The position numbers and the translations under genes were made by a program. From NCBI GenBank assembly GCA_046497075.1, contig JAWOGF010000054.1, positions 3,371 through 67,370 on the forward strand: DNA of 64,000 nt. Reading direction: 5' to 3'. Below are positions 55,431 to 64,000 of this stretch, piece by piece (position 1 is the stretch's first letter; the number at the start of each line of letters is the position of its first letter). The DNA comes from Candidatus Saliniplasma sp. (lineage in GTDB: Archaea; Thermoplasmatota; Thermoplasmata; Halarchaeoplasmatales; Halarchaeoplasmataceae). The notes below the pieces were generated by a model, which was given only the letters and a program-made list of their open reading frames with translations, had not been told where the DNA came from and did no database searches.

Positions 55431-55687
55431 ACTTACTATCTGGTATATCGACGATTTTGATTTTTATTGCCTTGTTCTCCTCATATCGACTTTTTGTTGG
55501 TCCCTCGATATACGACAGGATAATATCTCTGAATGTTGTCGGTGTTATTATAACTGTAATACTCACGATTATGAGTATAGAAACTGGAACAGGTCTTTAT
55601 CTAGATATCGCGATATCCTTTGTACTTCTGGATTTTGTAGGTACTATGGCTTTTATTAAATATCTAGAAGGTGGTGACTTTAAATGA
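55427..55687 (+). CDS. mnhF: Mrp/Mnh antiporter subunit F
   Basis: YRLFVGPSIYDRI, YLDIA, FVGTMAF; ATGA overlap at 55427. Confidence 0.88.
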   Translation: MNLLSGISTILIFIALFSSYRLFVGPSIYDRIISLNVVGVIITVILTIMSIETGTGLYLDIAISFVLLDFVGTMAFIKYLEGGDFK

Positions 55688-56025
55688 TCTTGACGATCCT
55701 ATCGGTATTTTTGATGACCCTGGGATGTGTAATCATGTTTACCGCTGCCCTGGGCCTTATGAGATTTTCTACGATAAATATGAGACTACATGCTAGTGGC
55801 AAAGCTGGAACTGGGGGGACTTTAGCACTTTTAATAGGTATCCTTGTCTATACAGGAATAGATGAGATCTCAGGTAAAATCATCCTGATAATCGTTTTGG
55901 TTTTATTTACTGGTCCGATAATATCTCATGCAATCGCTAGAGCAGCTTTTATCGACCCTGAAATACGTGCAGAAGTACCGATAGATGAATATCCTAAACT
56001 GGAAAAGAAAAAGGAGGGTAATTGA
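55684..56025 (+). CDS. mnhG: Mrp/Mnh antiporter subunit G
   Basis: GLMRF, RLHASGKAGT, PIISHAIARAA. Confidence 0.88.
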   Translation: MILTILSVFLMTLGCVIMFTAALGLMRFSTINMRLHASGKAGTGGTLALLIGILVYTGIDEISGKIILIIVLVLFTGPIISHAIARAAFIDPEIRAEVPIDEYPKLEKKKEGN

Positions 56026-56273
56026 TGGTTATCGAACTTTTCCTTATCTTGTTGTTGGGTGCTTGTATTTTGGTGGTCTTGGAAAAGGATATAATCAGAT
56101 CTTTGATATTCTTGGGTTTTGCCTCGATATTCGTGATGATACTGGTTTACCTTTACAATGCCCCGGATGTTGCCCTAACGTTAGCAGTGGTAAATGGTGC
56201 AGCTAGTACAATCCTTTTCTTGGCCGTTATAAAAAAACTGGAGGTGATTGGAGATCAGGAAAGTCTCAATTAA
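56022..56273 (+). CDS. Mrp/Mbh small subunit (MbhD/DUF4040-like)
   Basis: APDVALT motif; 3 TM segments. Confidence 0.8.
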   Translation: MMVIELFLILLLGACILVVLEKDIIRSLIFLGFASIFVMILVYLYNAPDVALTLAVVNGAASTILFLAVIKKLEVIGDQESLN

Positions 56274-56580
56274 GAAGATAGTGACTATTTCATTCCTTTT
56301 CTTTATAGTGATAACCCTCCTGAGCGGCCTTGGTCTTGAACATGAGGATAAACAGGAATCCGTACTGAAGGAGTATTATGTAGAGAACAGAAAGACCACT
56401 GGATCAGATAACATAGTTTCAGCCATCCTGCTCGACTACAGAGCCTATGATACTTTTGGTGAAGTTATGGTTTTGTATGTAGCCATCACCGGTGTTATCA
56501 TATTGGGAATGAAATCTAAAAAAGACAGTGAAGGAAAAGAGAAGGAGGAAAATGTACATATGGGGGGTGGAAATGGATGA
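56248..56580 (+). CDS. Mrp/Mbh small subunit (MbhE-like)
   Basis: NIVSAILLDYRAYDTFGE motif. Confidence 0.82.
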   Translation: MEIRKVSIKKIVTISFLFFIVITLLSGLGLEHEDKQESVLKEYYVENRKTTGSDNIVSAILLDYRAYDTFGEVMVLYVAITGVIILGMKSKKDSEGKEKEENVHMGGGNG

Positions 56581-56975
56581 GATCTATAATAATCAGAACC
56601 TCAGGTAGAGCTCTAGCCCCATTCATACTTTTATTTGGAGTGTACGTAACGATCTTTGGATATTCATCTCCAGGAGGAGGTTTTCAGGGAGGAGTATTGT
56701 TAGCCTCAGGTATAATTTTGATTCTCGTAACTCATGGTCGAAGAGAGGTAGAACGGTTGGCGTCGAACATAAGCTGGTTGGAATCGTTCGGTGCCTTTGC
56801 ATTTTTGATGGCTGGACTACTTGGGATAGTTATAGGGGGTGCTTTTTTGGCTAATATAACCCCCTCTAGCAGTCTTATGAAAATAGTTCTGGATATTGTT
56901 GTTTCTCTCAAGGTATTTGCAGGAGTTGTCGCACTTTTTGTTTATCTATTCAGCTTGGAGGTGGAACGATCTTAA
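56577..56975 (+). CDS. mnhB: Mrp/Mnh antiporter subunit B
   Basis: SPGGGFQGG motif. Confidence 0.88.
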   Translation: MRSIIIRTSGRALAPFILLFGVYVTIFGYSSPGGGFQGGVLLASGIILILVTHGRREVERLASNISWLESFGAFAFLMAGLLGIVIGGAFLANITPSSSLMKIVLDIVVSLKVFAGVVALFVYLFSLEVERS

Positions 56976-56992
56976 ATGGGATCAACATTGGT

Positions 56993-57328
56993 TTGATCAT
57001 AGTTTTTGTAGGTCTGTATGGATTGACAAATACTCACAATTCTATAAAGATCATTTTGGCACTTTCAGTTATGGGATTAGGTTTGATCTTGTTTTTCGTA
57101 TCTTTAGCTTATGTTCCCGGCGGTGCTCCTCCGATCGTACCTATTGGCTCCGATATATCCAATATTAATATTGTAGATCCAGTTCCTCACTCTTTCATGA
57201 TAACTTTGATAGTTATCAACCTTGCTACTACTGCTTTGGGATTAGCCCTGGTTATTCGCTTATTCGATGAATATGGTTCTCTAGATATCAAAGAAATGAT
57301 AAGATGGGGTGATGACGAAAGTGATTGA
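56993..57328 (+). CDS. mnhC: Mrp/Mnh antiporter subunit C
   Basis: DPVPHSFMITLIVI; start codon uncertain. Confidence 0.85.
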   Translation: MIIVFVGLYGLTNTHNSIKIILALSVMGLGLILFFVSLAYVPGGAPPIVPIGSDISNINIVDPVPHSFMITLIVINLATTALGLALVIRLFDEYGSLDIKEMIRWGDDESD

Positions 57329-58970
57329 ACATACTGCGATATTTATCATAATAGCACCATTAACTGGGGCTTTACTTTTAAGTGTACTTTCTAAGTTGAA
57401 TCTTCCCCAAATATGGAGGGATATAATCGCGTTTATCTCCTTGGTGATACCCGGGATCCTATTAATTTATTTTATACCTTCCCTTTTAGCATCACCTTTA
57501 AGGTATGAACTCGGCGGTTGGCCTTCACCTTATGGTATCACGATCGTCTTAGACAGTTTATCTGTTACAATGGCTACTATTACAGTCATCGTGACGATAA
57601 CAACCTTTGTTTATTCGTTAGAGATTAGAGAGATACTTCCCAAAGGTGAAAAATACTACATTCTCTTTTTGTTTATGACCACAGGTTTATATGGGGTTTT
57701 TTTATCTGGTGACGTAATCAATAGGTATGTTTTCTTTGAATTAACAGTTTTAACCACTTATGTACTGTTAACATATACAGATACTAAAGAATCTTTGAGG
57801 GCTAGTTACATATATTTGGTCATCGGAAGTGTAGCTTCCTTTTTCTTCCTAATAGGTATAGGGCTGATATATTTCAACACTGGTTACCTCGATTTTTCTG
57901 TCCTTTCAGAGTTGGTTCCCAACATGAGTATACATAAAAGAAACCTTATATTCATGTTCATATTAGTTGCTGTCTCTGTCAAATCAGGACTTATCCCTTT
58001 TCATACATGGCTGCCTGATGCTCACGTATCTGCTCCATCGCCCATGACCGCCGTATTGGCGGGTATCACGGTGAAAACAGGTGTTTATATATTAGTGAAA
58101 TTTATGGGTATGGGATTTATCACAGACCATATCAGATTGGTAATGATAATAATCGGCTTTATAACAGCTTTCATAGCAGTCCTAGTATCTCATAAATATT
58201 GGGACCTTAAAAGGATCTTAGCGTGGCATACTATTGCCCAGATGGGTTTGATAGTAGCAGTTTTATCTTTATGGAATATCTCCTCTGTTGCAGCGAGTAT
58301 ATTTCATCTTGTATCCCATGCGATCTTTAAGATACTGCTCTTTCTCTCAATCGGGGCAGTATTTTACCAGTTTGGTACTCGAGATATTCGAGAGATCTCT
58401 CTATTTAAGAACAGCCCGATACTGATCGGGGCTTTCCTCGTCGGAATCTTATCTTTGGTGGGTATACCTCCGATGAATGGCTTTTATAGTAAAACCCTAA
58501 TGCTTAGATCTCTCGAAGAGTACCTGGTTTTGTATGTTCTATTTATAATCGTTCAGATATTGACAGTTTCTTCTTTTTTCCGTGTTTTATATCATTCTTC
58601 AAAAGGCGAATGTAGTAGGAAACCCTTCCCCGTCAGCATACTACTCCCTACCACTGTTCTAGCCGGTCTATCTATATTTATAGGATGTACCACCACTATA
58701 TGGATGAATAATATAATCTCCCCCTCTGCGCAAGTTCTTACCAAAGGGTATACTATAACTAATCATTCCTTATTAGAAATAGAACTTCTTACATCCATTC
58801 ATGGTATAATCCTCCTTCTAACGATACCTGTAGGCATCGGTATAGGACTCGTTTCTAATAAGCTTAAAAAACCCGATTTAAGTGGTTGGCTCACAAAAGT
58901 AGATATAGCTGATTCTGTTAGGTATATAATAATTGTTTTAGCTATATATCTACTATTCACACTCCTATGA
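57309..58970 (+). CDS. mnhD: Mrp/Mnh antiporter subunit D (NuoN/M-like)
   Basis: GGWPSPYGI, YVFFE, KSGLIPFHTWLPDAH..APSP, GIPPMNGFYSK. Confidence 0.9.
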   Translation: MMTKVIEHTAIFIIIAPLTGALLLSVLSKLNLPQIWRDIIAFISLVIPGILLIYFIPSLLASPLRYELGGWPSPYGITIVLDSLSVTMATITVIVTITTFVYSLEIREILPKGEKYYILFLFMTTGLYGVFLSGDVINRYVFFELTVLTTYVLLTYTDTKESLRASYIYLVIGSVASFFFLIGIGLIYFNTGYLDFSVLSELVPNMSIHKRNLIFMFILVAVSVKSGLIPFHTWLPDAHVSAPSPMTAVLAGITVKTGVYILVKFMGMGFITDHIRLVMIIIGFITAFIAVLVSHKYWDLKRILAWHTIAQMGLIVAVLSLWNISSVAASIFHLVSHAIFKILLFLSIGAVFYQFGTRDIREISLFKNSPILIGAFLVGILSLVGIPPMNGFYSKTLMLRSLEEYLVLYVLFIIVQILTVSSFFRVLYHSSKGECSRKPFPVSILLPTTVLAGLSIFIGCTTTIWMNNIISPSAQVLTKGYTITNHSLLEIELLTSIHGIILLLTIPVGIGIGLVSNKLKKPDLSGWLTKVDIADSVRYIIIVLAIYLLFTLL

Positions 58971-59004: not shown

Positions 59005-59787
59005 CTACTCGATCAGGAAATCCCTAGTATCGTTCAACACCGGTCTACCCTTTCTTGCTCTATCAAGGTCTTCAAGGTCAATTTCTACCGTCAACATGTC
59101 TTCTTCATATATCGGTCCCCTTGCGACTTCCATCCCGGTCGGCGAAATCACTCTATCTCCGCCCCAGAACGTGAAATTTTCCTCTCTACCTAGTAGATTT
59201 GCGTAGAATGTGAAAGCGGTAGTTTCGATAGCTCTAGCTGGTAAGACAGTTTCGAAGAACTTTTTACTTATAGAAGGAGATGCAGAGATACAAACTATAA
59301 AATCAGCTCCTTTTAGGGCCATAGCTTTGGTCAGTTCGGGGAAGAAAATATCGTAGCATATCACCATACCTAATTTACCAAACTGAGTATCGAAGACAGG
59401 GATTTCATCATCCGATCCAAAATATCTCATCTCTTCGAAAGGCCCGAAGTTAGGTAAGTATGTTTTTCTATATACATCTATATCTCCTTCTGGATTTATT
59501 AAAACCGCTGAGTTTTTCAATCTCCCACTCCTACCTACCTTTTCCGGCATTCCAAATATGATAGAAGTCTGTTCTTCTTCTGTCAACTCAGCTATTATAT
59601 CCGTAGAAGGTCCAGGTATTTGTTCAGCTTCATCCCATAATCGATCTCTTAGCCTGTAACCAGTTAGAAAAAGTTCTGGGAATATGTATAGGTCACTGTC
59701 ATTTTGTTTAACCGTATTTGTTATTATACCTAAATTTGCTTCTTTATCTCCCAAAACATGCTTTTTTTGAACCAAAGAAACTTTCAT
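59005..59787 (-). CDS. Carbon-nitrogen hydrolase (nitrilase superfamily)
   Basis: Glu-Lys-Cys triad: FPELFLTGY, YRKTYL, ICYDIFFPE. Confidence 0.9.
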   Translation of the reverse strand: MKVSLVQKKHVLGDKEANLGIITNTVKQNDSDLYIFPELFLTGYRLRDRLWDEAEQIPGPSTDIIAELTEEEQTSIIFGMPEKVGRSGRLKNSAVLINPEGDIDVYRKTYLPNFGPFEEMRYFGSDDEIPVFDTQFGKLGMVICYDIFFPELTKAMALKGADFIVCISASPSISKKFFETVLPARAIETTAFTFYANLLGREENFTFWGGDRVISPTGMEVARGPIYEEDMLTVEIDLEDLDRARKGRPVLNDTRDFLIE

Positions 59788-59802: not shown

Positions 59803-60444
59803 TTATTTTTCAGTGAATTTTATCTTGATTTCATCGATATCCCAGAGATGTTCCAACTTTTCCATGATATCTTCCTTGATGGCATTGGCGAATTGATGGT
59901 CCTCAGCAAGATCTACTTTAAGTGAGATGATCCCATCTTTCACATCTATATCACCAATAAGGTCAGTTTTGACTACATCAAGCCCCGTCATGGGGTTCAT
60001 CACATGCCTCAGTCTCTTCTCAACGATTTCCTCTGTTGTTGGTTCCTCTTCTTTTACCAGACCATGCCTTTCTTCATAATCCGCGATAGCTGCCTGCAGT
60101 CCTTCTACGGCTAAAACGGAACAATGAGTTTTCATATCCGGTAAACCACCTAATTCATCTGCAGCGTCATTCCAGGTGATATTTTTTGCTTCATCGATAG
60201 TCTTTCCCTTAGCCATCTCTGTGATTATAGAGCCAGTTGCGATGTTCGATGCACAACCATAAGATTCGAATTTTATATCAGTTATCTCTTTAGTTTCATC
60301 ATCTACATTTATGTAAACTGATACCATGTCACCACAAGCTGGGCTCCCTTCTTTTGCCTTACCGTCTGCATCTTCTATCTTTCCAACATTTTTAGGATTT
60401 TTGAAGTATTCGATTACTTTTTCAGTATATGGTAAATCTGCCAT
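59803..60444 (-). CDS. iscU: IscU/NifU-N Fe-S scaffold fused to a DUF59/FeS_assembly_P-like domain
   Basis: PKNVG, ACGD, YGCAS, KTHCS; C-terminal LRHVMNPMTGLDVV..DLIGDI. Confidence 0.88.
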   Translation of the reverse strand: MADLPYTEKVIEYFKNPKNVGKIEDADGKAKEGSPACGDMVSVYINVDDETKEITDIKFESYGCASNIATGSIITEMAKGKTIDEAKNITWNDAADELGGLPDMKTHCSVLAVEGLQAAIADYEERHGLVKEEEPTTEEIVEKRLRHVMNPMTGLDVVKTDLIGDIDVKDGIISLKVDLAEDHQFANAIKEDIMEKLEHLWDIDEIKIKFTEK

Positions 60445-60474
60445 GTTCTTACCTCCTTTTCATCATTTTAATAT

Positions 60475-61641
60475 CTATTTATCTTTTCCTAAAGGACTTA
60501 TCTCTCTTAATCTTTCTACAACTTCACTTATAGCTTCTACGGTTCTATCAACATCTTCCATCGTATTATATCTTCCAAAGCTAAATCTAACTGACCCGTG
60601 AGCCCTTTCATGGTCCCCACCGATACCCATTATGACATGACTCGCTTCTAAAGACTTGCTGAAACAGGCCGAACCGGTGCTCACGGAAAAGCCTCTCATA
60701 TCCATGTGGAGTGTTATAGATTCACCTTCGACGTAATGGAATGTAATATTTGCATTATGTGGTGTTCTTTCCTTTGCAGGTCCGTTTAAAGTTGTATCGG
60801 AAATTTTATTCTGTATTTTCTTTATAAGTGCATCCCTCATGCCTTTTAGCCTTTCATTCTCTTCTTCAGTCACGAGTTCAACGGCTTTTGCGAATCCCAC
60901 GGCACCTGGGATATTTTCGACACCTGCTCTACGATTGTTTTCCTGAAAACCACCATCCATCAATTTTCCTAGATCAGTTCCATCTTTGACATAAAGTGCT
61001 CCAATACTTTTTGGGCCGTGAATAGTATGTGCTGACAAGGTCATCAAATCTATTGGAGTTTTACTAACATCGATTGGTAGCTTTTTGAATGTATGAGTTG
61101 CATCGGTGTGAAATAGAACATCATTCTGGTCACATATTTTACTTATTTCTTCGATGTCCTGAACTGTTCCGATCTCTTGGTTCCCGTGCTGTATCGATAC
61201 TAATCCAGTTCTCTCATTGACTGCATCATCCAATTCGTCAACATCTACAAAACCTTTATTGTCAACTTCGAGAAACGTAACTTCGTATCCCTCTTTTTCT
61301 AATCTTTGGGCACTTTTTAGAACGGGAAAATCCTCTATTTTACTAGTGATTATATGATTTTTATCTTCAGGCAGTTTCTTAGCTACACCTTTCAAAGCTA
61401 GATTGCTTGCTTCCGTCCCACATGACGTAAATATCATCTCTTCGGGACTAGCTCCAATATTATCTGCTATAGTGCTCCTAGCATCTTCCAAACCCTCTTT
61501 TGCTTTGATCCCAAGAGAATATCCAAATTCAGAACTAGCTACGGCATATTTCTCGAACAAGTAAGGTTTCATAACCTCTAAAACCCTTTCATCCATCCTC
61601 GTACTTGAACTGTTATCTAGATATACTGTTTCTTCCTTCAT
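60475..61641 (-). CDS. iscS: IscS/NifS-like protein lacking the PLP Schiff-base lysine
   Basis: YLDNSSST, FTSCGTEASN, NQEIG, STGSAC retained; SAHK changed to SAHT and EH changed to ED. Confidence 0.88.
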   Translation of the reverse strand: MKEETVYLDNSSSTRMDERVLEVMKPYLFEKYAVASSEFGYSLGIKAKEGLEDARSTIADNIGASPEEMIFTSCGTEASNLALKGVAKKLPEDKNHIITSKIEDFPVLKSAQRLEKEGYEVTFLEVDNKGFVDVDELDDAVNERTGLVSIQHGNQEIGTVQDIEEISKICDQNDVLFHTDATHTFKKLPIDVSKTPIDLMTLSAHTIHGPKSIGALYVKDGTDLGKLMDGGFQENNRRAGVENIPGAVGFAKAVELVTEEENERLKGMRDALIKKIQNKISDTTLNGPAKERTPHNANITFHYVEGESITLHMDMRGFSVSTGSACFSKSLEASHVIMGIGGDHERAHGSVRFSFGRYNTMEDVDRTVEAISEVVERLREISPLGKDK

Positions 61642-61650
61642 CTTTTCACC

Positions 61651-62070
61651 TCATATAAACAGTGTTATATCAGATTCTTTCGCCTCTTTTATATAAGTTC
61701 CTACAGCGCAGTAATCTGAGATGATTTCATCCCTTAAATCTTTTTTTTCAACGCCCATTATCTCCATGGTCATATCACAAGCCAATATCTTACCCCCTAA
61801 TTCCACAAAGTCATCCATCATCTCTTCTAATTCTCTTACATTAGAGTTCTTCATCTTTCTCTTCATTATCCATTTACCTAATCCAAGAAAATTCATTTTA
61901 GAAAGAGGACCCTTGTCTAATTTTCCTTTCTTCAATCTTTCAAGCCCCCAGAATGTAAAATACATCGAAACCTCCATCCCCATGGAAAGTGCTCCATTAG
62001 CGATTATGAAAGCGCTGTAAATTTTATCAAAATCACCACTTTGAATTATGAGGGTGGTTTTTTCTGTCAA
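61651..62070 (-). CDS. DsrE/DsrF-like (DsrE2-type) sulfur carrier
   Basis: YFTFWGL, ILACDMTMEIMG, final LFI. Confidence 0.85.
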   Translation of the reverse strand: MTEKTTLIIQSGDFDKIYSAFIIANGALSMGMEVSMYFTFWGLERLKKGKLDKGPLSKMNFLGLGKWIMKRKMKNSNVRELEEMMDDFVELGGKILACDMTMEIMGVEKKDLRDEIISDYCAVGTYIKEAKESDITLFI

Positions 62071-62074
62071 TATT

Positions 62075-62323
62075 TCACACCTCTACAGGTATTTTGATTT
62101 TGATGATCCAATTTTTTCCATCTTCCTCAATACCTAACAATTCTAAGCCCAATGATTCTACAGCCATCGGTATTTCTTTTTTGGAAGGTGGATGATTCCC
62201 CTCAATGATAAGGACGTCTCCCGGTTTAGCCTTTCGTACTGCCTTCCTCGTCTCCACTAAAGGAACCGGACAAGTCTCCCCTTTGACATCAACTTTTTTT
62301 TCGGCCATTTTAATCTTCTCCAT
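62075..62323 (-). CDS. tusA: TusA/SirA-family sulfur carrier
   Basis: VDVKGETCPVPLV (CPxP); alternative start at 62308. Confidence 0.88.
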   Translation of the reverse strand: MEKIKMAEKKVDVKGETCPVPLVETRKAVRKAKPGDVLIIEGNHPPSKKEIPMAVESLGLELLGIEEDGKNWIIKIKIPVEV

Positions 62324-62441: not shown

Positions 62442-62807
62442 ATGCTAGTTTCAGACCTAGATAGATTTTCAAAACATATAATTATACCCTTGATGCTATG
62501 GTTAGTCGATAATGTGGAAAAATCTGAAGGTGAAGATGAAGGCAAAGGATTAACAGCTATCAGTGAACATCTCGAAACAGACGACGTGATGAAAAAATAT
62601 ATCATAGAGATAATCAAAGAAGAGATCGAAGATAAGGCCATCAAGAAAATGAACATAGGTGACGAGGATAGTTTAGAAGATGTGAAAAAAGCAGTTTCTC
62701 TATACATAGAGGCGAAGATAAAAGAGTACTCTGCTTATTCCCTTCTTCTAAAATCTGGTAGTGGTCTTGCTTTGAAAATATTACTCTCCAGGCTAAAAAA
62801 CAAGTGA
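62442..62807 (+). CDS. Hypothetical protein
   Basis: 121-aa ORF with host-like charged composition; no recognised motif. Confidence 0.5.
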   Translation: MLVSDLDRFSKHIIIPLMLWLVDNVEKSEGEDEGKGLTAISEHLETDDVMKKYIIEIIKEEIEDKAIKKMNIGDEDSLEDVKKAVSLYIEAKIKEYSAYSLLLKSGSGLALKILLSRLKNK

Positions 62808-62888
62808 GAATGTATATCAAGAATGAATACACTTGTATCGTGATGCAAAAGTTTTAATACCTAATCCCAAATTCAGTTTTGAAAAGTG

Positions 62889-64000
62889 ATGGATAATGAT
62901 AAGTTTGAGTCACTCACGTGGTTATTAGGACTTTTGAAGGCTCTTATCAAAAAGCCCGGTGAGATATTTCGGGGTATGCGTCGCGAAGGGATCTATGCTT
63001 TTTTAAAAGAAAGGATGAAAAAACCGAGGAAAAACGAGATACTGGAAGGCAACGTATTTGCAGTCATGTTTAAGCTGGGCTGGCCTATGATGGTCGCCAC
63101 ATTTTTGAGAACTCTTTACAACCTTATTGACACTTTCTGGCTTGGTAGGATTGCAGATCCACAGGTTGCAGAATATTCCGTAACCGCAGTGGGTCAGGGA
63201 TGGACTGTTGTTTTTATGATGATGTCCATCGAGATGGGATTCGGTATCGCTGCGTTAGCTCTGATCTCTCAATATACCGGACAAAAAAATTTTAAAGAAG
63301 CTGATAGAACTGCTGGACAGTTATATTTCATAGCTATCACGGCTTCAATCCTGATCGGTGTATTTGGTTATTTTATGACCCCTACGTTTATGGACATTCT
63401 AGTGGGTGCTGGAGAGGATTCCGCCGCATTAGCTCACTACGGTACAATGTACATCCAGATAATATTCCTAGGCCTGCCGTTTATGTTCCTCTTTTTTGCA
63501 TTTATGTATACGCTTCGGGGGTGGGGTGATACGATCACACCGATGAAGATCACCGCCATCTCTGTTTCACTGAATATGATCATCAATCCTATACTCATCT
63601 TTGGATCTGGAACTATGCCTTTTCTTGGCATAACAATACCAGAACTACCATTATTTGGACCAGTGCCTGCCCTTGGAGTAAGAGGGGCGGCTATCGGAAC
63701 AATTATGAGTCGAGGGATCGGCTCAACATATGCGACCTACATGCTTTTCAAAGGAAAAGTAGGATTGAAACTAAAACTTTCTTATTTGAAACCGGACCTA
63801 TCTAGATTGAAGGAGTTTCTAAAAATTGGTGTACCGGCTGGCGTTGGTAGGTTTGGCACTTCTATAGGTTTCATTATTTTGTGGGCTGTTATATATAGAC
63901 TTCCGAATCCCGAAGTCGCTGGGGCAGCTTATAGTGTTGGCAACAGGATATTGAATATCACGTTTCTTATTATGGGCGGTTTCGCCATGGCTATAAGCAC
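62889..64000 (+). CDS. MATE-family efflux transporter/flippase (runs off the window end)
   Basis: Open frame from ATG 62889: ILEGNV..MFKLGWPMM..LYNLIDTFWLGR, SQYTG, LRGWGDTITPM, NMIINPILIFG, GVRGAAIGT. Confidence 0.88.
   Translation, partial: MDNDKFESLTWLLGLLKALIKKPGEIFRGMRREGIYAFLKERMKKPRKNEILEGNVFAVMFKLGWPMMVATFLRTLYNLIDTFWLGRIADPQVAEYSVTAVGQGWTVVFMMMSIEMGFGIAALALISQYTGQKNFKEADRTAGQLYFIAITASILIGVFGYFMTPTFMDILVGAGEDSAALAHYGTMYIQIIFLGLPFMFLFFAFMYTLRGWGDTITPMKITAISVSLNMIINPILIFGSGTMPFLGITIPELPLFGPVPALGVRGAAIGTIMSRGIGSTYATYMLFKGKVGLKLKLSYLKPDLSRLKEFLKIGVPAGVGRFGTSIGFIILWAVIYRLPNPEVAGAAYSVGNRILNITFLIMGGFAMAIS

Follow-up and report, generated by a model that had tools for sequence, protein, structure and literature searches.

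Where the sulfur of iron–sulfur (Fe-S) clusters comes from in the minimal ISC-type systems of archaea, and what a "dead" IscS does in them, are questions touched on by four adjacent genes on contig JAWOGF010000054.1 of the draft genome of a salt-lake archaeon, Candidatus Saliniplasma sp. (GCA_046497075.1). The genes lie in a stretch of 64,000 nt, here called the window, whose positions are used as coordinates unless another locus is named. They encode a TusA-family protein, a DsrE2-like protein, an IscS-like protein without the lysine that holds pyridoxal phosphate (PLP), here designated IscS*, and an IscU scaffold fused to a DUF59 domain. A first-pass annotation made from the letters alone had proposed that this operon is a desulfurase-independent sulfur relay for Fe-S assembly. 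Our analysis suggests, with a probability of about 0.58, that the four genes are one Fe-S building module in which IscS* is non-catalytic and is fed by the TusA and DsrE2 carriers.

Loss of the Schiff-base lysine in IscS*

IscS* resembles a cysteine desulfurase in its fold and its loop cysteine, but not in the Schiff-base lysine, the His/Gln/Thr set or the equivalog scores. The Aminotran_5 model (PF00266) covers the protein at model positions 1–370 of 371, and the SxGSAC loop and the C-terminal LREISPL segment, which are IscU-facing features, align to solved IscS chains. In addition to the substitutions listed in Table 1, Val241 of IscS* (RAGV) lies opposite the threonine of RAGT in those chains. 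Among canonical group-I enzymes, 100% of 113 sequences have the expected His, Gln and Lys at the positions that are Asp104, His183 and Thr206 in IscS*, and the IscS* scores are under the cut-offs of the NCBIfam equivalogs for both NifS (453.3 vs 530.75) and IscS (379.1 vs 643.2). The first-pass annotation had read Thr206, Asp104, DATH and RAGV from the sequence, together with a full-length reading frame, a retained Cys326 and intact cysteines in TusA (CPVP), DsrE (ACDM) and IscU (three). Alignment to the solved chains and direct reading of the ACT codon (61026–61024) confirmed the changes, and each of the retained features was present.

The same residues recur throughout the family. In an alignment of IscS* and its 120 nearest homologues (64–93% identity; 121 sequences), position 206 is never lysine (Thr in 116, Ile in 4, Asn in 1), position 104 is Asp in 119 and Asn in 2, position 183 is His in 120, position 241 is hydrophobic, and Cys326, Asp180 and Arg238 are invariant. 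Thr206, His183 and Cys326 were likewise found at 80 of 80 genomic loci, with position 104 being Asp in 77 and Asn in 3. Such agreement in every protein and every locus indicates that the substitutions are not due to chance. Mean column identity was 77% across 18 family sequences, the labelled lineages of which include Thermoplasmatota, MSBL1, Korarchaeota, Aenigmatarchaeota, Theionarchaea, Heimdallarchaeota, Methermicoccus and Chloroflexota (for several rows the source is unlabelled). To this can be added the ratios of nonsynonymous to synonymous substitution rates (dN/dS) from six pairwise comparisons within the genus, which were 0.059–0.117 for IscS*, 0.015–0.035 for IscU-DUF59 and 0.040–0.064 for the DsrE2-like protein; the values for a neighboring CN-hydrolase gene were 0.055–0.080 (four pairs), and for TusA dS was saturated.

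The losses at the PLP site occurred in concert, recur across the family and are maintained by purifying selection, which argues for repurposing rather than error or decay, and we interpret the loss of the lysine in this way. The first-pass annotation had favored the same explanation and had named a decaying copy among homologues that keep Lys and His as the finding that would overturn it. What was found was the opposite: all 120 nearest homologues are without the lysine, and lysine-less iscS genes with the same synteny and under purifying selection occur in other genomes. A sequencing error or a decaying pseudogene can practically be dismissed, given a full-length reading frame, the same residues in 80/80 loci and 121/121 proteins and a dN/dS of 0.06–0.12.

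Changes are not confined to the PLP-contacting positions. When family-specific positions were defined as those conserved in at least 95% of the 121 family sequences and shared with no more than 5% of the 113 canonical sequences, 18 were obtained, among them 34, 104–106, 151, 155, 183, 206, 226 and 327. Position 226 is a lysine that is 95% conserved in the IscS* family and a proline in canonical enzymes. In IscS structures, several of these positions line the PLP/substrate pocket. Asp180, Thr76, Ser203, His205 and Arg352 are retained in the family, and the first four of these we take to be PLP contacts in canonical IscS. As far as can be judged from sequence, the pocket gives the impression of concerted remodelling and not of drift.

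Three further observations concern the IscS* sequence. The lysine of the GPK motif, five residues downstream of position 206, had been named in the first-pass annotation as a residue through which activity might be rescued; it was rejected as a substitute, as canonical enzymes share GPK and 6 of the 18 family loci have Arg there. In a related genus, a family member (locus L024, 1507–2643) carries Asn205/Ala206 (SANAIHGPKG) in place of His205/Thr206, and the replacement residues can thus vary. In an Asgard archaeon (Promethearchaeati; L048, 1857–3021), the match to IscS* falls into two segments (residues 1–83 and 95–388), which may reflect a frameshift, a minor insertion or a fault in the assembly.

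A four-gene cassette in archaea and bacteria

The operon is real: a check of the open reading frames (ORFs) of the window found four of them packed on the minus strand at 59803–62323 in the order tusA, dsrE2-like, iscS* and iscU-DUF59, separated by gaps of 4, 9 and 30 nt and accompanied by Shine-Dalgarno-like GGTGA and GGAGG stretches (Table 1). All four proteins scored well above the Pfam cut-offs of the families expected for them. The two putative carriers belong to their families without reaching the equivalog thresholds. TusA scored 36.4 against the NCBIfam TusA equivalog (cut-off 78) and was likewise under threshold for YedF, and the DsrE2-like protein, whose nearest solved chains are 3PNX and 2QS7, scored 70.4 against the DsrE2 equivalog (cut-off 210). 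Their candidate carrier cysteines are well conserved: Cys18 of TusA was kept in 68/69 loci, and Cys98 of the DsrE2-like protein was invariant in its family alignment and kept in 71/72 loci. In the fourth protein, the IscU scaffold part comprises residues 6–127 and the DUF59 part, which has zero cysteines, residues 140–207. The scaffold has Cys37, Asp39, Cys64 and Cys108, with His107 preceding the last cysteine, and these ligand residues were kept in 75–78 of 78 loci. Of the solved chains, A. fulgidus IscU (4EB5_C, from the entries of an IscS–IscU complex) matches it best (E 6e-41). The equivalog scores of IscU-DUF59 (116–155, cut-offs 188–192) were under threshold, which fits its fusion and divergence. 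A prediction of the complex between IscS* and the DsrE2-like protein gave a score of 0.00, the mark to be reached being 0.32, and carries no weight either way.

Table 1. The four genes of the operon and the diagnostic residues of IscS*, in positions of the window
Feature	Position	Strand	Basis
TusA-family sulfur carrier, 82 aa	62075..62323	-	Pfam PF01206, 71.7 bits; Cys18 in CPVP, codon 62272-62270
DsrE2B-like sulfur carrier, 139 aa, TTG start	61651..62070	-	Pfam DrsE_2 PF13686, 129.4 bits; Cys98 in ACDM, codon 61779-61777
IscS* (388 aa), complete group-I IscS/NifS fold lacking the PLP lysine	60475..61641	-	Aminotran_5, 243.5 bits
IscU + DUF59 fusion, 213 aa	59803..60444	-	Pfam NifU_N, 150.3 bits; FeS_assembly_P, 41.1 bits
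Thr206 at Schiff-base Lys position (SAHT vs SAHK)	61024..61026, codon ACT	-	aligned to solved IscS chains, codon read directly
Asp104 at PLP-stacking His position (IED vs IEH)	61330..61332, codon GAT	-	aligned to solved IscS chains
His183 at Gln position of DAxQ (DATH vs DAVQ)	61093..61095, codon CAT	-	aligned to solved IscS chains
Cys326 of mobile loop STGSACFS, kept	60664..60666, codon TGT	-	aligned to solved IscS chains

The tight linkage that had been noted in the window is also seen elsewhere. A scan with one genome per species returned at least 556 relatives, of which the best 80 loci (64–93% identity) were examined; the closest relative among these 80 is that of Candidatus Saliniplasma halalkaliphilum (93% identity). 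All four genes were present in the same order and strand in 68 of the 80 loci, a count that includes locus L100, whose TusA match has 54% identity. The incomplete loci were those cut upstream by a contig end (four), those without a DsrE2 gene (two), those with iscS*-iscU only (four) and those with iscS* alone within 4 kb (two). For genomes of the same GTDB family, 13 of 17 loci beyond the window's own hold the four genes in order, and the remaining four were either cut by contig ends (two) or without the DsrE2 gene (two). According to record titles, the archaeal hosts include Thermoplasmata, Hadarchaeota, Methanofastidiosa, Methanosarcina, Methanothrix, Methanomassiliicoccales, Theionarchaea and an Asgard archaeon, and the bacterial hosts Halanaerobiales, Syntrophales, Dehalococcoidales, Anaerolineae, Clostridia and WOR-3. 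The gene order is identical in three Methanosarcina loci (L070, L078 and L098), where IscS* identity is 66–68%. On the evidence of these comparisons, we regard the four genes as a conserved, mobile cassette of archaea and bacteria.

Beyond the four cassette genes, no neighbor family was found in more than 9 of the 80 loci. The occasional neighbors included a glutaredoxin (8 loci), a ferredoxin:thioredoxin-reductase/rubredoxin fusion (8), an Nfu-type carrier (6) and an Rrf2 regulator (6), which fit Fe-S and thiol chemistry, as well as a radical-SAM protein and a pyridine-nucleotide disulfide oxidoreductase (7 loci each). In some bacterial loci (L068, 3496–4239, and five more), the genes of the Nfu-type Fe-S carrier and of the IscR-like Rrf2 regulator come after the cassette in the same orientation. 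On a Methanomassiliicoccaceae chromosome (L100, 1–1202), a second IscS–IscU pair (43–44% identity) is located ~2 kb upstream of the cassette.

Fe-S and sulfur genes of the host genome

In order to place the cassette in its genomic setting, profile searches of the source genome were considered together with those of its relatives. No SufB/D core was found in the source genome, with a control search that was positive in 14/14 reference genomes, and no SufC was found over the cut-off, the best ABC ATPase scoring 88.6 vs 212.8 bits. The only NifU_N (PF01592) gene is the cassette IscU, the only group-I IscS-type gene is IscS* and the only TusA-family (PF01206) gene is the cassette TusA; the IscU count refers to this genome. 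SufB/D was found in 0/6 genomes of the genus and in 5/24 other genomes of the family. Moreover, in six genomes of at least 90% completeness, which belong to three genera (G000, the source genome, and G001, G012, G020, G021 and G024), the cassette IscS* was the sole IscS-type match and no SufB/D was found. With no SufB/D, no SufC and a single IscU, yet 14 radical-SAM genes, the cassette is probably the housekeeping Fe-S assembly machinery of this organism, as the counts in the other genomes suggest for their lineages. As neither SUF/SMS nor a second IscS/IscU was found in the genus, the cassette is hard to dismiss as a redundant spare.

The search for another desulfurase had a mixed outcome. 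The first-pass annotation had asked whether a canonical IscS or SufS, or SufBC/SmsBC, exists elsewhere in the genome, and while SufB/D, SufC and a second IscS were not found there, a SufS-like gene was. It encodes an enzyme of 393 aa on another contig (C57; L001, 1453–2634) that is intact, with the lysine (FSVHKMLGP), histidine (DKEHNS) and cysteine (GGMHCV) kept, and that scored 378 bits against the SufS subfamily model (cut-off 475). The gene was present in 6/6 genomes of the genus and in 33/41 sampled genomes. The proposed sulfur relay therefore stands in part: the repurposed IscS* and its conserved link to the carriers were upheld, but with an intact SufS-like desulfurase conserved in the genus, desulfurase independence is unproven.

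Other sulfur genes were seen in the source genome. Directly upstream of the SufS-like gene is that of an ATP-dependent sulfur transferase of the LarE type (241 bits, above the cut-off; the pair spans L001, 574–2634), and downstream, on the other strand, is a ThyX-like ORF, named from its translation. Rhodanese domains are present in this genome. A YeeE/YedE-like sulfur-compound transporter, a possible entry route for thiosulfate-type sulfur, appears to be split over two contig ends (L128, C8:8345–8818; L129, C78:82–501 and 1345–1518), one half being followed by a rhodanese domain.

Origin of the lysine loss and comparison with known systems

A tree was inferred with FastTree and midpoint rooting from 169 sequences and 384 columns, the set consisting of 150 cluster representatives, 8 family members, 12 loci from relatives and the query, less two fragments of <330 aa. 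Family members with Asp104, His183 and Thr206, a signature that IscS* shares in full (D104, H183, H205, T206, a hydrophobic residue at 241 and the STGSACF loop), formed a clade with support of 0.997. This clade is inside a larger one (support 0.96, 20 leaves) in which 19 of 20 leaves are without the lysine, with signatures that include R/H/H/[LV], A/W/G/L and H/Y/H/L, and which is itself nested among canonical enzymes. Sequences with the A. fulgidus-type signature (H104/A183/N205 with D, Q or S at 206) made up a clade of their own, with seven members and support of 0.986, in the opposite half of the tree; A. fulgidus itself is outside the tree, and its signature was taken from the structure-chain alignment and from PMC7585200. 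The location of two lysine-less clades in separate halves of the tree implies that the lysine was lost at least twice, independently, and that A. fulgidus IscS2 is an analogue of IscS* and not an orthologue. The comparison with A. fulgidus made in the first-pass annotation thus holds for the missing lysine and the retained cysteine, but as analogy only.

The surroundings of the different IscS types were sampled in 1.5-kb flanks, in a small set in which kin are not independent. DsrE was upstream in 3/4 A. fulgidus-type loci, one of which also had TusA. TusA or DsrE was nearby in 0/2 R/H/[LV]-type loci, which instead had IscU-DUF59 and a YHS-domain protein, and in 0/4 of the canonical IscS loci scanned. 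In the two loci of this third lysine-less kind (Arg104, His183, Leu/Val206; L038, 707–2652, and L039, 1450–3423), the iscS gene is followed by IscU-DUF59 and then the small YHS-domain protein, with no TusA/DsrE within 1.5 kb.

One of the published systems closest to the cassette is isc1 of M. acetivorans. According to the available text of Deere et al. 2020 (PMC7585200), IscS1 (MA0808) has the STGSACFS loop but lacks the PLP-binding residues, including the lysine; it was detected by proteomics, proved insoluble in E. coli and was left uncharacterised (their Table 1 and text). Its partner IscU1 (MA0807) is 24.2 kDa, and four genes whose function is unknown lie in a cluster with the pair (PMC7585200). 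The cassette shares with isc1 the lysine-less IscS with this loop and the long IscU, and the Methanosarcina loci have the cassette order; the likeness to MA0808 is based on the published motif and on those loci (66–68% identity, same synteny). The two hosts differ in that M. acetivorans has two further IscSU pairs and SMS, whereas in the source genome the cassette is alone. In the portions of that paper available, only IscS2/IscU2 was consistently detected and is regarded as the primary system, and IscS1 is proposed to act possibly like the A. fulgidus IscS (PMC7585200). The latter, also lysine-less, is described in the accessible parts of two sources as having no desulfurase activity and as providing a cysteine ligand to the [2Fe-2S] cluster of IscU (PMC7585200, PMC13066941). 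A. fulgidus IscS2–IscU (PDB 4EB5, 4EB7 and 4HVK; D199K variant 4R5F) is like the cassette pair in the group-I fold, the missing lysine, the retained loop cysteine and the IscU partner, and the A. fulgidus IscS chain matches IscS* with an E value of 1e-97. It is unlike IscS* in having His104, Ala183, Asn205 and Asp206 rather than Asp104, His183, His205 and Thr206.

The minimal system MIS (MisS/MisU; Garcia et al. 2022) consists of a desulfurase and a scaffold with no additional components, as described in the available parts of PMC13066941 and PMC12442378. The cassette is similar in that an IscS-like and an IscU-like gene lie side by side, with no chaperones, in anaerobic archaea, but differs in that IscS* is without the PLP site and that TusA, DsrE2 and DUF59 are added. 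TusA is a known partner of IscS, described as an acceptor from the catalytic enzyme (PMC13066941, in the sections available), and the E. coli IscS–TusA and IscS–IscU complexes (PDB 3LVJ and 3LVL) involve the same protein families. However, in E. coli sulfur passes from a catalytic IscS to TusA. IscS* has no PLP route to a persulfide, so any flow must run towards IscS*/IscU or bypass IscS*. Elsewhere, proteins of the TusA and DsrE families take part in the thiolation of tRNA and in dissimilatory sulfur pathways, and the function of DsrE2B is unknown even in sulfur-oxidiser systems (PMC11094781, as far as its available text goes). The DsrE2B/TusA of sulfur oxidisers (S. solfataricus 2QS7; PMC11094781) resemble the cassette carriers in belonging to the DrsE_2 family, in the conserved cysteine and in adjoining tusA, whereas the cassette is without an sHdr or Dsr context and its DsrE2-like protein is well under the DsrE2 equivalog cut-off.

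In the accessible portion of a 2026 review (PMC13066941), MIS is the least studied system, "DsrE" does not occur, and TusA, which is mentioned four times, appears as an acceptor of catalytic IscS and not in the context of MIS. No description of a link between TusA/DsrE2 and a lysine-less IscS with IscU was found in the literature searched. The cassette is a pair of the MIS/ISC type whose IscS is PLP-less and to which sulfur carriers have been added, from a family that is in print but uncharacterised. What is new here is the genome-context evidence for the cassette as the only recognisable Fe-S scaffold system, the caveat of the SufS-like enzyme and the tree that points to independent origins.

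Proposed function of the cassette and alternative explanations

In the reading that we prefer, IscU-DUF59 would be the scaffold on which the cluster is built. IscS* would descend from a cysteine desulfurase but be non-catalytic and free of PLP; it would still dock on IscU, and its Cys326 may take up sulfane sulfur and hand it over, serve as a ligand of the forming cluster, or do both. Sulfur would be brought to IscS*/IscU by two persulfide carriers, TusA (through Cys18) and the DsrE2B-like protein (through Cys98), which would so replace the cysteine cleavage of canonical IscS. We infer all of the transfer steps, the way in which they run and where the sulfur originates. The anaerobic hosts favor sulfide or polysulfide as the source, and the SufS-like enzyme is a possible one. 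A cassette that is kept nearly unchanged in many anaerobic archaea and bacteria would offer a concrete route from TusA/DsrE2 to the cysteine of IscS* and on to IscU, and the Candidatus Saliniplasma lineage lends itself naturally to asking whether Fe-S assembly can be cysteine-independent.

Several observations weigh against this proposal. An ApbC/Mrp-type protein and a stand-alone DUF59 protein in the source genome could add scaffold or carrier capacity, the absence of SUF/SMS is based on a draft assembly that is 95% complete in 92 contigs, and, with the SufS-like enzyme as widespread as described above, the sulfur may come from cysteine. Eight of the 80 loci are without TusA and/or DsrE2 within 4 kb, two of these also being without IscU, so the linkage to the carriers is not universal. 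With respect to the pocket, the retained Asp180, Thr76, Ser203 and His205 make non-covalent binding of PLP or of another ligand possible. In addition, an AlphaFold2 model of the IscS* monomer, made from the 18-row alignment, had a mean predicted local distance difference test score (pLDDT) of 70.6 with values <50 at residues 206–211, 227–241 and 311–346, which are the pocket and the Cys loop, and it was left out of geometry and fold-search use.

Of the alternatives, one retains the module but makes it cysteine-dependent: the SufS-like PLP enzyme would generate the persulfide, TusA and DsrE2 would carry it and IscS* would be an adaptor only. The retained Lys, His and Cys of that enzyme, its 378 bits and its presence across the genus and in most sampled genomes speak in favor of this explanation, which we nevertheless consider unlikely, because the gene is on another contig beside the LarE-type sulfur transferase, no link to the cassette was seen and its score is under the SufS cut-off. 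Given that neighbor, the enzyme may serve LarE instead. We think it quite improbable that the cassette serves sulfur trafficking or repair (tRNA or cofactor thiolation, cluster repair, or thiosulfate/polysulfide handling), with bulk Fe-S clusters made by an unrecognised system or ApbC/Mrp. Such roles would be in line with the functions of TusA/DsrE elsewhere (PMC11094781, available text), with the IscS2/IscU2 pair being considered primary in M. acetivorans (PMC7585200, likewise) and with the ApbC/Mrp-like gene, the YeeE/YedE-like transporter and the rhodanese domains of the genome. They sit poorly with the cassette IscU being the sole IscU in a genome where no SUF/SMS was found, with its almost universally kept ligands and with the Nfu and Rrf2 neighbors in some loci.

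There is only a slight chance that IscS* is still an enzyme that mobilises sulfur, either via a relocated lysine (Lys226) or via another cofactor or metal in the remodelled pocket. The conservation of Lys226 where canonical enzymes have Pro, the retention of Asp180, His205, Ser203, Thr76 and Arg352, and the near invariance of Asp104 and His183, which are not drifting, are what one would cite for it. Against it are the joint change of four PLP contacts and the A. fulgidus lysine-less protein, which is without desulfurase activity in the available text of PMC7585200; furthermore, the structural model, being unreliable in that region, does not place Lys226 in the pocket. A bolder form of the proposal, which we hold to be doubtful, is that the pocket was rebuilt as a new site by the Cys326 loop, for example a His/carboxylate site that binds iron or one that binds sulfide or persulfide. 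It would be formed by the nearly invariant Asp104, Asp180, His183 and His205 with Thr206, Gln151, Gln155 and Lys226. IscS* would then be an iron- or sulfur-activating partner of IscU, and the cassette would be self-sufficient, cysteine-independent, horizontally spread among anaerobes and alone in sustaining the lineage.

Genes adjoining the cassette

The G+C content at 60001–62000 is 0.386, compared with 0.35–0.42 across the window; with the cassette in the range of the window, a recently acquired island is unsupported. A divergent ORF upstream of tusA (62442–62807, +) encodes an acidic protein of 121 aa with zero Pfam/NCBIfam matches. A CN-hydrolase gene (nitrilase superfamily, 167 bits; 59005–59787, -) begins 15 nt past IscU-DUF59 on the same strand, and was rejected as a member of the cassette because it is kept beside it in genus-level loci only. 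Further along, at 55684–58970 (+), there are small hydrophobic ORFs and a 553-aa membrane protein that, as named from their translations, resemble an operon for a cation/proton antiporter of the Mrp type. Beyond the opposite end of the cassette, at 62886–63998 (+), is a multi-pass membrane protein, also named from its translation, that runs off the end of the window.

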